NCBI GenBank assembly: GCA_038212275.1
Contig: JBBQUR010000002.1
Coordinates: forward strand, 96,001-160,000
Source: Planctomycetota bacterium
GTDB taxonomy: Bacteria > Planctomycetota > B15-G4
DNA: 64,000 nucleotides
Direction of reading: 5' to 3'
In this document: in pieces, positions 3,861-9,798 of the stretch
Layout: every line of letters begins with the position of its first letter
How positions within the stretch are numbered: the stretch's first letter is position 1
Program-made: the position numbers and the translations under genes
Notes under the pieces: generated by a model
Seen by the model: only the letters and a program-made list of their open reading frames with translations
Database searches by the model: none
What the model was told of the DNA's origin: nothing

Positions 3861-3975
3861 TTCGCTAGGGGTGTGAGCCACGGGCAGCGTCGCGCGGGAA
3901 GGCGTGGCGAGGGCACGCGGCGCACTGAGATCAAACCCTTGGAACCTGATCAGCGCGAGCTGCGGAGGGAAGCGG
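3861..3975 (+). promoter_or_regulatory. TPP riboswitch
   Basis: CTAGGGGTG...CTGAGA..ACCCTTGGAACCTGATC...GCGGAGGGAAG directly upstream of thiC; TTCCCTCC near 3995 can pair with the GGAGGGAA strand (expression platform). Confidence 0.9.
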
Positions 3976-4044
3976 GCACGGACAGCGTGCGGCGTTCCCT
4001 CCTCGCGTGCCGATCAGCGCACGCCGTCACGGAGCACGAAACCC

Positions 4045-5892
4045 ATGTCCATCGAATCGCTGCCGCGCACTCCCTCCGCCGGGCCCAAGGCTTCTGACCT
4101 CGCCGCGCCGGCGCTCCCCGCCGGCCTCCCGCCGCTCGGCGACAACCCGTCGACGCAGCGCCAGGGCACCTCGCCCGGCAGCTTTGCGAACAAGGGCCGC
4201 GTCGGCACGGCCTGGACTTTCAGCTCGCCGGACACGCCCGGCATGCCGCAGCCGTCGGAGCAGACTGCGTGGAACTTCATGCCCGCGGACTGGACCTGCC
4301 TCGTTGACGACGCTGCGGCCGTCGCGACGGGCGCTCATGGCAGCCGCGACCCGGCGGCGCTGGCCGCAGCGCGCGCGCGGCCCTCCGCCTGGCGCGCGCC
4401 GGCCGACTTCGTGCCGCGCACGCAGCTCGAGCATGCGCGGCTCGGGACGATCACGCCGCAGATGGTGCGCGTCGCGGAGCGCGAGGCGCACCTCACGCCG
4501 GAGCAGGTGCGCGACGAGGTCGCCGCGGGGCGCATGGTCATCCCGGCCAACATCAACCACCTGAAGTGGGCGCTCGACCCGATGGCGATCGGCCGCGCGA
4601 GCCGCACGAAGGTGAACGCCAACATGGGCGCCTCGCCCGTGAGCAGCGGCACCGAGGAGGAAGTCGAGAAGCTGCGCTGGGCGGAGCAATGGGGCGCCGA
4701 CACGGTGATGGACCTCTCCACCGGCGGCGACCTCGATGCCTGCCGCGCCGCGATCGTGCGCGCCAGCACGGTGCCCATCGGCACGGTGCCGATCTACTCG
4801 ATGATTCTCGGGCGGAAGATCGAGGATCTCGACGAGGAGACCGTGCTGGCCAGCCTGCGCCACCAGGCCGAGCAAGGCGTCGACTACTTCACCATCCACG
4901 CAGGAGTGCGGCGCGCGCACCTCGACCTCGTGCGGCGGCGCCTCATCGGCATCGTGAGCCGCGGCGGCGCGCTGCTCGCCAAGTGGATGCTGCATCACGG
5001 TCGCGAGAACCTCATGTTCACCGCGTGGGAGCGCATCTGCGACGTCCTGCGCGAGCACGACGTCACCTTCTCCATCGGCGACGGCCTGCGCCCCGGCGGC
5101 ACCGCGGATGCGACCGACGCCGCGCAGCTCGCGGAGCTGGCCACGCTGGGCGAGCTCACCGAACGCGCCTGGCGCAAGGGCGTGCAGGTCATGGTGGAAG
5201 GCCCCGGCCACGTGCCCTTCGATCAGATCGAGTTCAACATGAAGCTGCAGCGTCGCCTGTGCCACGGCGCGCCCTTCTACGTGCTCGGGCCGCTGGTCAC
5301 GGACATCTTCCCCGGCTACGACCACATCACGAGCTGCATCGGCGCGACGGCGGCGGGTTACCACGGCGCCGCGATGCTCTGCTACGTCACGCCCAAGGAG
5401 CACCTCGCGCTGCCGAAGAAGGACGACGTCAAGCAGGGTTGCGTGGCCTACAAGATCGCCGCGCACGCGGCCGACGTGGCGCTGGGCATCCCCGGCGCGC
5501 GCGACCGCGACGACGAACTCACCAAGGCGCGCGCCGCGCTGAACTGGGAACGGCACTTCGAGCTGTCCTTCGATCCGGAGCTCGCGCGCCAGTACCACGA
5601 CGAAGACCTGAAGGTGGACACGGACTTCTGCGCGATGTGCGGGCACGACTGGTGCTCCGTGCGCATCAGCAAGGAGATCATGGAGTTCGGCAGCGGCAAG
5701 GATCGCGACGCGCAGCCGGAGCAGCGCACGCGGCCGTCGCCCGCGGTCGCGGCGGAGCGCGAGGCGCTCGACGCCCGCGCGCGTGCGGCGGCCGCCGAGC
5801 ACCACAAGCTCGGCTGCCACAGCGATGTCGTCGCGGACGACGGCGCGGCGAAGCGCCTCCAGGAACAACTGATCTCCGTGCCCCGACCGTGA
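4045..5892 (+). CDS. thiC: Phosphomethylpyrimidine synthase ThiC
   Basis: [54 protein letters not shown] Fe-S motif; TPP riboswitch upstream. Confidence 0.97.
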
Positions 5893-6296: not shown

Positions 6297-6352
6297 CCGC
6301 CAGCGAGTCCCTCGACCTCCCCCCATCTCGTCGCACCAGCGCACGGAGTCCC

Positions 6353-6751
6353 ATGCCCGACAGCAGTCATCCCCACTTCAACGACCGCGGCACTCTCGCC
6401 TGGCACGCGACGTTCGACGAGGCGCTCGCCGCGGCGAAGCGTGACGGCAAGCTCGTGTTCATCGAGATGGGCCGTGAGCAATGCAGCAACTGCCGCTCAC
6501 TCGTGGAGTCCGTCGTGACGCAGGCGAATGTCGCGAAGCTTCTGCAGGATGGTTTCGTCGCGGTGGCCTCGGACATCGACGACCCCGAGCCCGCCGTTCT
6601 CGACCTGGCCATGGCGAACCTGCCCGATGCGATGATGCTGCCCTTCGTGCTCTTCACCGACGCCGAGGGGAACTTCCTCGCCGGTGGCCACGGCGCCGTG
6701 AACCCCTCCGCCTTCGCCAGGACGCTGCAGACCCTCGCCGAGAAGCGCTGA
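6353..6751 (+). CDS. Thioredoxin-fold protein
   Basis: GGAG RBS; WHATFDEALAAAKRDGKLVFI..CSNC; LPFVLF cis-Pro motif. Confidence 0.85.
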   Translation: MPDSSHPHFNDRGTLAWHATFDEALAAAKRDGKLVFIEMGREQCSNCRSLVESVVTQANVAKLLQDGFVAVASDIDDPEPAVLDLAMANLPDAMMLPFVLFTDAEGNFLAGGHGAVNPSAFARTLQTLAEKR

Positions 6752-6863
6752 CACCCCCGGCGTGAGCAGCGCCCTCGGCGTGAGCGGTGCGAGCGAGACA
6801 ACAGCTGCCAGAAGTCGCGACGAGGCGTCGCGACACCTCATCACGCGGCTCGCTCGGACACCC

Positions 6864-6896
6864 GTGTGATGTTGAGGCACTGCCTCTACATCACAC
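6864..6896. repeat. 33-bp near-perfect palindrome
   Basis: GTGTGATGTTGAGGCA-C-TGCCTCTACATCACAC: 16-bp arms with one mismatch. Confidence 0.85.
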
Positions 6897-6904
6897 AGGC
6901 CGCG

Positions 6905-7155
6905 TGAGAAGGGTTCGTGAGAGCTGTCGAAGGTGTCCCGGTCCTGGCACCTGGGGTTGACGGGTCACCCCGGCAGCGGTCACTCCGGCTGCGAGCCATA
7001 CGGTGAGTGGGCCGGAGGGCAAATAATTCTGGAGCCGTCCCACCGGCTTCGAGAACAGGGGTAGACTCAACATCCACAAGCGTGCCCCGAATGGGCACAC
7101 CGAGAGGGCGGAGGCCCCCAAATGGCCCGGGAGCTGCTATCCCGGGCCATTGCTT
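6905..7155 (+). ncRNA. Candidate structured non-coding RNA, family unassigned
   Basis: Intergenic and lower GC; consecutive stems with G-U pairs valid on the + strand; ends at a 12-bp hairpin. Confidence 0.45.
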
Positions 7156-7156
7156 T
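7121..7156 (+). terminator. Strong hairpin, possible intrinsic terminator or attenuator
   Basis: AATGGCCCGGGA-7 nt-TCCCGGGCCATT followed by GCTTT (weak U tract). Confidence 0.55.
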
Positions 7157-7215
7157 GGATGGCGCCGCCCGCTTCCACTCCTTCTCCTGCCCCTCTCGAC
7201 CCGAAGAAGGCCACG

Positions 7216-9798
7216 ATGCCCCCGCTGCCGCGATTCCCGTTGCCGCTCCGCAGGTCTCGCACCGGGCTGACTGCCTTGCTCGTGACGTGCTGTGCGCTTG
7301 CGATGTCGACGCACGTGGCGGCGCACGTGCTGGTGCAGGCCGCGCGGCCTGGCAGCGGCCGAGTCGCCCCGCATGACGTGCTCGACGCGCCCCTCCGGGA
7401 AGCGCTGGCCGCCGCACGCAGCGTCGCAGCGCCGTCGCAACTCCCGGTCTATCTCGTGATGGTTGAGCAGCTCGACGGTGGGCGCGTCGCGGAGTCGCTC
7501 GGCGGCGTGCCGCAGAACGCGCGCCGCGCCGCCGTCATCTCGCGCCTGAAGCAGCACGCGGCGACAACACAGTCTGCCGTGCGTGCGGCGCTCGCCTCGG
7601 CGCAGGCGGCGGGCCGTGCGGGCAGCGTTCAGTTGCTGTGGATGGGCAACGCCGTGGTCTTCACCGCGCAACCCGACGTCATCGAGGCCCTGGCCGCACT
7701 GCCCGGCGTCGATCGCATCCGCCTCAACCTGGATCCGGACCCGTCGCAGGTGCAGGACGCCGTGTCGACGCCGCTCGCTGCCGCACCGGCCCGCGCGCCG
7801 ATGCCGGGGCCTGCGATCGCGCCCATGCCCGCACCGGCGCCCATGCCCGCACCGGCGCCTGTCGCACCGGCGGCCATCGCGGCGACGCTGGGGACGGCGC
7901 CCTATCCTTTTGCCGACGACTTCGAGTCGGGGACGCTGCAGCCGTGGTGGACGGTGGCGACGACGGGCAGCGGCTACGCGACGGTCAGCACGGCCAACGG
8001 GCCGGTGAACACCTGGCATGTGCTCATGGCCACGTCGGTGGACGGCGTGGATTCCACCGCGAGCCTCACGCTCTGCCTGAACCTGCTGGGCCAGTCCGAC
8101 GTCGGCATCCGCTTCCAGCACAAGTCGTTCAACGACGACGCCGACGCGCAGGACGGCGTCTTCGTCAGCACGGACGGCGTCACCTGGAAGCTCGCGCTCT
8201 CGCTGCAGAACGGCACGGCGACGTACTCGCCGAAGACCATCAACCTCGACGTGGTCGCGGCCTCGCTCGGCCTCTCCTACACGAGCAGCTTCTTCGTGCG
8301 CTTCCAGTGGCACGACAACTTCAACATTCCGTCGGACGGCTTCGGCTTCGACAACTTCGAGATCGGCCCGGGCCTCTACGTGCCGCCGCCGGCGCTTCCC
8401 GAGGCCAACCTCGTCGCGCTCCAGGCCCCGCAACTCTGGGAGCTCGGCTATCGCGGCGAGGGCGTACTCGTCGGCACCATCGACTCGGGCGTGCTCATCA
8501 CGCACCCGGACCTCGTGCACCGCATCTGGAACAACCCGGGTGAGATCGCGGGCAACGGCCTCGACGACGACGCCAACGGCTTCATCGACGACGTGCACGG
8601 CTGGGACTTCATCAACGGCACCGGCAACGTGGTCTCGACCGACCCGCACGGCACGAGCACGGCCGGCATCGTGGTGGGCGACGGCGGCGGCGGCAAGGCC
8701 ACCGGCATGGCGCCCGGCGCGACGCTGCTCGTCTGCAAGGTGCTGAGTCAGGCCAGCTACTGGCTTGCACAGCAGTACTGCATGCAGGAAGGCGTGGGCG
8801 TCATCACCTCCAGCTACAGCTACAAGTGGGCCGACGTCCCGCAGCCCGACTACCACATGTTCCGGCAGCTCACGGAGATGGAACTCGCGGCCGGCGTGAT
8901 CCACGCCAACTCGATCGGCAACCAGGGCTCGCTGCTGTCGAGCTACCCGGTGCCGTTCAACATCTCGACGCCCGGCAACTGTCCATCACCCTTCAGGAAC
9001 CCGCTGGACGTGGTGGGCGCACAGAGTTCCGTGCTCGGTTGCGGCGGCATCCAGCTGCCGCTGGACAGTCTCTACCTGCCTTCGGGCCGCGGCCCCGCCG
9101 CGTGGGACAACATCACGCAGTACAACCCGGCCTACGCCTACGCGCAGAACAGCGCCTCCTGGGATTATCCGTACGGCGGCTTCTCCGGCACGGGCCCCGG
9201 CCTGCTCAAGCCCGACCTCATGGCCTACGCGACGAACGTGACCACGGCCACCATCAGCACGACGTACACGATCTTCTCGGGCACGTCGGCGGCGACGCCG
9301 CATCTGGGCGGCGCGCTCGCCCTGCTCCGCCAGGTGCAGCCCGCGGCGCTGCCGCGCCACCTCGCCGCCGCGCTCGAGCTCTCCGCGAAGGACCTCGGCG
9401 TACCGGGCAAGGACAACCTCTTCGGCTCGGGCCGCATCTCGGCCTTCGACGCCGCGCGCCGGCTGCGCATTCTCGGCCGCATGAGCGACATCACGCCCGC
9501 GCTCGGCCACTCCGTCACTCTGGAACTCTTCGGCTACCCGTCGGCGCAGCTCTACGGCTTCTTCGCCGCGTCGATCTTCGACGGGGCCGGCGCCTTCAAC
9601 CTCTTGGCGCCGTTCTTCGCGCTCGGCCTGCCGCCGCTCGGGCCGGCGGGCACCGCGTCGGTGCCGCTGCTGCTGCCCAATGACCCGATCCTGGTCGGCG
9701 TCACCGTGTGGTTCCAGTTCGCTGCCAAGAACAATGACGCGACGTGGGGCAGCGGCGCGCTCATCTCCGTGCCCGAGGCGATCACGATCAAGCCCTGA
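7216..9798 (+). CDS. Secreted S8 (subtilisin-family) serine protease with propeptide, inserted jelly-roll domain and C-terminal domain
   Basis: Catalytic triad IDSG / HGT / GTSAATP; NPGEIAGNGLDDDANGFIDDVHGWDF loop; LKPDL; signal peptide. Confidence 0.92.
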   Translation: MPPLPRFPLPLRRSRTGLTALLVTCCALAMSTHVAAHVLVQAARPGSGRVAPHDVLDAPLREALAAARSVAAPSQLPVYLVMVEQLDGGRVAESLGGVPQNARRAAVISRLKQHAATTQSAVRAALASAQAAGRAGSVQLLWMGNAVVFTAQPDVIEALAALPGVDRIRLNLDPDPSQVQDAVSTPLAAAPARAPMPGPAIAPMPAPAPMPAPAPVAPAAIAATLGTAPYPFADDFESGTLQPWWTVATTGSGYATVSTANGPVNTWHVLMATSVDGVDSTASLTLCLNLLGQSDVGIRFQHKSFNDDADAQDGVFVSTDGVTWKLALSLQNGTATYSPKTINLDVVAASLGLSYTSSFFVRFQWHDNFNIPSDGFGFDNFEIGPGLYVPPPALPEANLVALQAPQLWELGYRGEGVLVGTIDSGVLITHPDLVHRIWNNPGEIAGNGLDDDANGFIDDVHGWDFINGTGNVVSTDPHGTSTAGIVVGDGGGGKATGMAPGATLLVCKVLSQASYWLAQQYCMQEGVGVITSSYSYKWADVPQPDYHMFRQLTEMELAAGVIHANSIGNQGSLLSSYPVPFNISTPGNCPSPFRNPLDVVGAQSSVLGCGGIQLPLDSLYLPSGRGPAAWDNITQYNPAYAYAQNSASWDYPYGGFSGTGPGLLKPDLMAYATNVTTATISTTYTIFSGTSAATPHLGGALALLRQVQPAALPRHLAAALELSAKDLGVPGKDNLFGSGRISAFDAARRLRILGRMSDITPALGHSVTLELFGYPSAQLYGFFAASIFDGAGAFNLLAPFFALGLPPLGPAGTASVPLLLPNDPILVGVTVWFQFAAKNNDATWGSGALISVPEAITIKP

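Follow-up and report, generated by a model that had tools for sequence, protein, structure and literature searches.

Protein-dependent antitermination leaders are known in several forms, among them the RAT sites of BglG/LicT, the two-hairpin ANTAR sites, the PyrR sites, and boxB of lambda nut. In the first three of these, the hairpin that the protein binds shares sequence with the 5ʹ arm of the terminator. To our knowledge, gene control at the RNA level is almost undescribed in Planctomycetota. The greA leader of Escherichia coli is a leader-terminator attenuator that also releases short RNAs, GraL (PMC2836576).

The locus compared with these systems here lies in a 64,000-nt stretch of contig JBBQUR010000002.1 (positions 96,001–160,000; the window) from a Planctomycetota bacterium, whose assembly comprises 4.65 Mb at 70% GC and is 91% complete. 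A sequence-only reading of the window had flagged positions 6905–7155 as a multi-hairpin candidate non-coding RNA, either a divergent 6S-like RNA or a new RNA class. An uncatalogued, covarying motif does exist in this span, but it is restricted to 7056–7158 on the + strand, and its features suggest a 5ʹ leader or attenuator serving one gene, not a global regulator. The flagged 251 nt comprise a genome-specific spacer beside a REP-like repeat and what is very probably a real element of ~100 nt.

The intergenic gap and its genome-specific spacer

The flagged span sits in an intergenic gap of 465 nt between two + strand genes, and Pfam confirms the proposed thioredoxin and S8 protease flanks. Upstream, 6353–6751 (+) encodes a thioredoxin-like protein of 132 aa with a CSNC motif (Thioredoxin_7, E = 2e-12); downstream, 7216–9798 (+) encodes an S8 subtilase of 860 aa (Peptidase_S8, E = 1.8e-33). 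The S8 protein has a signal-peptide-like N-terminus, and an additional in-frame ATG is found at 7159. Its catalytic domain covers residues 414–739, and residues ~1–410 (window 7216–8450) gave no Pfam match. Genes for ThiC and a pterin-4a dehydratase lie further upstream, and genes for a Usp and an FG-GAP protein lie further downstream on the opposite strand. No TPP riboswitch accompanied the ThiC gene (3904–5889; Radical SAM ThiC, E = 2e-179) in the Rfam gathering-score scan of the window.

The thioredoxin-like gene showed a pattern of its own. Ten of 16 family orthologs have an in-frame TGA at the first Cys of CxxC, and the remaining six, among them the copy in the window, encode Cys there (CSNC and similar). 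Metagenome orthologs mostly carry the in-frame TGA at the same CxxC position; the TGA-containing copies are L041, L043, L044, L047, L048, L050, L051, L020, L058, L059, and many of L066–L145. In a protein of the Thioredoxin_7/DUF255 type, this pattern looks like a selenocysteine/cysteine pair.

We then examined folding across the flagged span. On the + strand, 6905–7155 folds with z −3.10 (2 of 200 shuffles were equal or better), compared with z −1.38 on the minus strand. The segment 7072–7158 gave z −3.95 with none of 200 shuffles as good, while 6905–7035 gave z −1.29 with 18 of 200 as good, which places the folding signal of the flagged span in its 3ʹ part. The complementarities listed in the sequence-only reading are all present in the sequence. 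RNAfold of 6905–7035 recovered helix 6923–29/6971–77, which closes the proposed three-way junction, along with a helix covering stem 6983–90/7010–17, and stem 7027–37/7044–55 appears in the minimum free energy (MFE) fold of 6905–7155. In the 15 other family genomes, however, the junction has no counterpart and neither stem has homologous sequence. The last two hairpins of the list, 7082–87/7093–98 and the 12-bp hairpin 7121–7132/7140–7151, are also in the MFE fold of 6905–7155, and these two have evolutionary support. The GC content of the span was reported as lower than that of its flanks, and it is somewhat so, at 0.60–0.68 versus 0.70–0.81.

Comparison with relatives divides the gap at the same place. 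When the entire gap was compared with 40 related genomes by BLAST, ~7036–7165 was recovered from six other genera of the family at 73–85% identity, and ~6927–7035 from none. The distance from the thioredoxin gene to the conserved element, 308 nt here, is the longest among 12 genome loci (others 53–232 nt, measured from the end of the thioredoxin alignment). The segment 6905–7035 is a genome-specific spacer with no sign of functional RNA. Just 5ʹ of the flagged span, and outside the RNA element, is an imperfect REP-like palindromic repeat of 36 nt (6862–6897), which matches on both strands at ~19 loci in its own genome and is the sole part of the gap that is repeated there. Assembly contigs of X1, the likely source run, break at this palindrome, where bin depth is 629 versus ~30.

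A covarying three-hairpin element

To define the distribution of the conserved part, we used a covariance model, R1, built from nine sequences with a P1-P2-P3 hairpin structure. R1 gave exactly one strong match (71–103 bits) in each of 11 of 16 family genomes, with the window's own copy scoring 81 bits at 7056–7158. Beyond the family, it gave only two weak matches (26–28 bits) in 26 other genomes of the order, which equal the whole class as sampled, and only two (29–32 bits) in a 151-genome sample of the phylum. These four weak matches (L052, L053, L150, and L151) were rejected as copies of the element, as they consist of a P3-like hairpin and U tail with no P2; the L052 and L053 loci also have no thioredoxin or S8 context. 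An exact-pattern scan of species genomes returned 25 matches, of which 8 were true, including two new ones; the other 17, in Actinomycetota and other groups, were chance. A set of 80 metagenome loci, picked by the thioredoxin-like protein and not by the RNA, yielded 8 further copies. Records carrying the element were deposited as Planctomycetota or Phycisphaerales metagenome-assembled genomes, with one labeled Myxococcota and one "bacterium." In a related strain present in activated sludge runs X3/X4, there are 3 differences across 7094–7256, all at or beyond 7195.

The 20 distinct sequences collected supply 413 cells, of which 97.3% are paired; double changes occur in 27 cells and affect 9 of the 21 pairs. 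Column shuffling, repeated 500 times, never attained the observed pairing or double changes, and slid registers pair at 30–58%. The alignment used for these counts was fitted to R1 and favors the structure; the slid-register control and an independent MAFFT/RNAalifold analysis agree with it. Homology and covariation had been named as the checks for the flagged span, and they divide it: 7056–7158 is conserved and covarying, but the 5ʹ half has no counterpart in relatives. We hold with high confidence that the S8 leader contains a real, conserved RNA element on the + strand.

The conserved part opens with two boxes. A C-rich box, CCCACC (CCCCCC in relatives), is found at 7039–7044 (+), at the −35 position and 17 nt upstream of a −10-like hexamer, TAGACT (7062–7067, +), which is preceded by GGGG and whose TA..CT is invariant in all 20 aligned sequences. 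About 14 nt further on is P1 (7082–7098, +; 7082–87/7093–98), a GUGCCC/GGGCAC hairpin with a CGAAU loop, in which 5 of 6 pairs change on both sides across the 20 sequences. P1 is followed at 7099–7119 (+) by a stretch marked by sequence invariance: a linker (ACC..GAG), the P2 hairpin GGGC-GGAG-GCCC (7106–09/7114–17), and a C-rich 3ʹ flank. P2 was absent from the hairpins listed in the sequence-only reading. In relatives, it reads GGGGC-GGAG-GCCCC. Its stem shows no covariation, with 4 of 5 pairs invariant and one having a single G-U, and its loop is GGAG in 18 of the 20 sequences, UGAG in one (L050), and GGAC in one. The linker from P1 to P2 is 8 nt in 16 of 20 sequences and 6 nt in the window copy. 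This copy is among the weaker ones, with only four of the 20 weaker still, and its P2 has 4 pairs instead of 5.

The third hairpin, P3 (7121–7132/7140–7151, loop 7133–7139, +), is terminator-like and is followed by a U-rich tail to 7158. It is separated from P2 by 5–8 nt and shares no bases with it. P3 has 10–12 bp that are mainly G-C; across the 20 sequences, 98.5% of its cells are paired and 4 of 10 modeled pairs covary, which corresponds to the GC-rich stem-loop of an intrinsic terminator. The corresponding U-tract is also present: 109 of 180 tail positions are U (61%), against 15% T genome-wide, with 4–7 U per 9 nt. The window's own tail, UUGCUUUGG, has 5 U in 9. A consensus scan of 6300–7700, with a terminator rule of at least 5 T in 8, called no sigma-70 promoter and no terminator.

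Other readings of these parts were rejected. A leader peptide (GGAGG-N8-AUG, with an ORF from 7122) has its AUG in only 12 of 20 sequences, inside the P3 stem. The P2 12-mer occurs twice in its own genome, the second time (on contig C7) outside any hairpin context, so P2 does not represent a repeated protein site of a regulon. P3 is not a common repeated terminator either, as a GGCCCGG...CCGGGCC hairpin is found at only 5 loci in the genome.

Thermodynamics does not favor the + strand: read on the minus strand, the 3ʹ part is just as stable (z −4.47 versus −3.95), and that strand also holds the best Rfam near-miss, the Bradyrhizobiaceae small RNA BjrC68 (RF02353; 19.8 bits, E = 0.012). These observations would suit a minus-strand antisense RNA, and palindromic sites bound by protein at the DNA level are a further reading of the same symmetry. 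We assign the element to the + strand because the U-rich tail of P3, the upstream −10-like box, and both neighboring genes are on that strand. G-U pairs, which had been put forward as working only on the + strand, leave strand undecided, although their 8 cells do exceed the 5 A-C/C-A cells in the 20 sequences. Loop lengths vary (5–23 nt in P1 and 7–11 nt in P3) with compensatory stem changes, as expected of RNA hairpins rather than of an operator with fixed spacing. An antisense RNA or a set of DNA sites is thus highly improbable. BjrC68 resembles the element in having two hairpins and a tail, but its score falls well below the gathering score of 39, its strand is opposite, and its hairpin order is reversed; the resemblance is due to chance among GC-rich hairpins.

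At gathering score, Rfam 15 matched only two tRNAs in the whole window, in keeping with the earlier statement that SRP, RNase P, tmRNA, and common riboswitch motifs are absent. Matches at the region in E-value mode (minus-strand BjrC68, several microRNA models, and others) were discarded as chance. The motif at 7056–7158 is new to Rfam 15, and a literature search did not find it.

The proposal of a divergent 6S-like RNA sequestering RNA polymerase drew on the size of the flagged span and on two short sequence words. Like 6S RNA (RF00013), the element is an intergenic non-coding RNA candidate, but the two are unlike in length, architecture, and model score. RF00013 (gathering score 46.4 bits) gave no match in 6700–7300 even at E ≤ 10, and a gathering-score scan of the whole window did not return it either. 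Only ~100 of the 251 nt are conserved, and these ~85–100 nt form three separate short hairpins in place of the ~180-nt single helix that characterizes 6S, in which a large central bubble imitates an open promoter. Candidates for 6S lie at other loci. A full-length one in the same genome (G000, contig C22:73960–74123, L055) scores 34.8 bits, below the cut-off, and a canonical TTGACC-N17-TATCAT promoter is found upstream of it. The 6S model matches 8 of the 16 genomes of the family, 5 of them above the cut-off, and two genomes (G001 and G010) carry both an above-cut-off 6S match and the S8-leader element. The probability that the element is itself 6S-like is close to negligible. It does not resemble a CsrB/RsmZ-type sponge either, having only one GGA-containing loop (UGAG in L050), and no CsrA was found in its own 91%-complete genome.

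Association with the S8 gene and its probable promoter

Next, we considered which gene the element belongs to. A thioredoxin ortholog lies upstream in 12 of 12 genome loci, and an S8 ortholog lies downstream in 10 of 12, with the remaining 2 loci ending too early to tell. In 12 loci with an unambiguous start, S8 begins 16–121 nt after the P3 tail; at one further locus, the first in-frame ATG, a putative start, is 5 nt after the tail. In three cases (L045, L046, and L047), the distance is only 16–26 nt, which leaves no room for another promoter there.

Loci without the element are also informative. Of five element-free family genomes, four keep thioredoxin followed by S8, and the fifth (58% complete) has no thioredoxin match; among the 15 family genomes with both genes, 4 therefore lack the element. 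With filters off, R1 reached at best 5.6 bits in these four genomes. Immediately upstream of S8, they nevertheless have CCCCC(C)-N18-TAGGCT/TATCCT/TAGAAT; P1 is also kept in one of them. The 80 metagenome thioredoxin loci include 8 with the element and 12 with S8 but no element, and at metagenome S8 loci without the element, the −10-like box is present, along with P1 in several. P2 and P3 are lost together, with L056, L068, and L069 retaining the boxes and P1 only. As the boxes persist before S8 where P2 and P3 are missing, we read them as the S8 promoter, so that every S8 transcript would pass P3. The hairpins therefore lie between the promoter boxes upstream and the S8 start downstream.

This predicted promoter differs from the housekeeping ones of the family. 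Family 6S promoters read TTGACC-N17-(GGGG)TATCAT, and 6S and tRNA promoters together read TTGACC-N17-TAnnnT. The genome's own 6S candidate carries caGGGGTATCAT, close to caGGGGTAGACT at this locus, and this likeness supports the −10 reading of TAGACT. The S8 promoter has no normal −35 and instead has the conserved C-rich box, which is not sigma-70-like. In 7039–7067 and at the corresponding place in L056–L059, this box is kept across genera, also where the leader differs. It is probably an activator site, which would make the S8 promoter activator-dependent. The combination of C-box and −10 has one other occurrence in the genome, and we rejected it as a general promoter type on that count; a pattern so confined to one locus would fit dependence on an activator.

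These loci also bear on whether the hairpins belong to the thioredoxin gene, with P3 ending its transcript as part of a 3ʹ UTR and the conserved boxes not forming a promoter. The thioredoxin gene is always upstream on the same strand in the 12 loci, and the consensus scan called no other terminator-like hairpin between its stop codon and P3. In contrast, the element occurs in none of 41 metagenome thioredoxin loci that lack an S8 match although their downstream sequence runs to at least 600 nt, the boxes stay before S8 even without P2 and P3, and the distance from thioredoxin to the element ranges over 53–308 nt while spacing within the element is fixed. We consider a thioredoxin 3ʹ UTR improbable.

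A stronger competitor, though still an unlikely one, is an independent, trans-acting small RNA of ~85 nt that has a promoter and a terminator to itself, in which P2 would be a seed or protein site for targets elsewhere, synteny with S8 would be inherited, and read-through would be incidental. A promoter-like box, three stem-loops, and a terminator are the standard layout of such an RNA; the element occurs once per genome, and the invariant 20-nt stretch is typical of a seed. That "seed," however, is mostly within a stable stem. The same boxes would drive S8 directly where P2 and P3 are absent, and with S8 beginning as near as 16–26 nt past the tail, the short RNA and the S8 mRNA would have a common transcription start. 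Loss of the element from 4 of the 15 genomes with the gene pair also counts against a trans-acting RNA, as does the lack of matches to Hfq (PF17209) and CsrA (PF02599) in its own genome, where at 91% completeness an absent match is not proof.

A candidate attenuator and its relation to known leaders

Our preferred reading is that 7056–7158 (+) forms the leader of the S8 subtilase mRNA, next to its promoter. Transcription would probably start a few bases past TAGACT, and the first ~85 nt of the RNA would fold into P1, P2, and P3. P1 would be structural, and P3 with its U-rich tract would be an intrinsic terminator, at which RNA polymerase would stop and release a short RNA of ~85 nt. S8 would then be produced from read-through transcripts only, at a level set by a factor that recognizes the invariant P2; the prematurely ended RNA could additionally act in trans. 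A promoter, a structured leader, a terminator architecture, and then a gene form the layout of a transcription attenuator. Judged from sequence and its conservation, we give roughly an even chance to the S8 leader element being an attenuator that also releases a short ~85-nt RNA.

How read-through might be set is constrained by pairing. Inspection of the 20 aligned sequences revealed no conserved alternative partner for either P3 arm, and the apparent complementarity between the P2 region and the C-rich UTR that follows P3 did not exceed that in mononucleotide shuffles at 9 loci (z −0.78 to +1.15). With no mutually exclusive antiterminator pairing, the classical logic of riboswitches and attenuators is missing, and because P2 does not overlap the terminator, read-through would need a mechanism other than a competing-helix switch. 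Since no alternative antiterminator pairing is present, a protein would be more likely than a small ligand as the P2 factor. No candidate gene for a P2-binding protein was found among the neighbors (ThiC, pterin dehydratase, Usp, and FG-GAP protein). We only tentatively suggest, as a somewhat doubtful possibility, that P2 and its fixed 8-nt linker are the docking site of an unknown RNA-binding antiterminator or a small ligand. If so, they would represent a new class of riboregulator, one that gates the production of a secreted subtilase in a family of uncultured Planctomycetota.

The absence of alternative pairing would equally fit a constitutive structural leader, whose hairpins protect the 5ʹ end of the S8 mRNA, for instance from RNases, or position it, while P3 neither terminates nor responds to a signal, and stable 5ʹ hairpins are a known mRNA-stabilizing device. 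Stabilization, however, does not need a 61% U tract in a 15% T genome, and a stem kept only for its structure would not require both P2 strands to be fixed in sequence. A merely structural role therefore has a low probability, similar to that of a thioredoxin 3ʹ UTR.

For the attenuator reading, the significance is specific rather than broad. The motif is supported by covariation, is not in Rfam 15, and is tied to a single gene, which encodes an S8 protease that is secreted. Should P3 act as a terminator and P2 govern read-through, the motif would offer a first handle on how extracellular protease is switched in these bacteria, as well as a compact promoter-leader cassette for genetics in Planctomycetota. 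Its reach is narrow, at one family, one copy per genome, and ~20 sequences, and the general impact is modest.

Set against known systems, the S8 leader shares with riboswitch platforms a 5ʹ leader position with a terminator, and covarying stems beside invariant nucleotides. It differs in having no multi-stem junction, pseudoknot, or antiterminator, with the conserved part being a plain 5-bp hairpin whose stem shows no covariation. Protein-dependent antitermination leaders are closer, as they too have a small, sequence-conserved hairpin just upstream of a terminator and no multi-helix junction of the ligand-binding type. Unlike in RAT, ANTAR, and PyrR sites, P2 and P3 of the S8 leader are 5–8 nt apart, no Rfam model matches, and no cognate protein was found. 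The E. coli greA leader resembles this locus in having a promoter, a short structured leader, an intrinsic terminator, and a gene tens of nucleotides downstream, and a premature stop would likewise give a small RNA and read-through an mRNA (PMC2836576). The two are unrelated in sequence and phylum, and the S8 leader has an invariant P2 before its predicted terminator, which suggests that a specific factor acts there.
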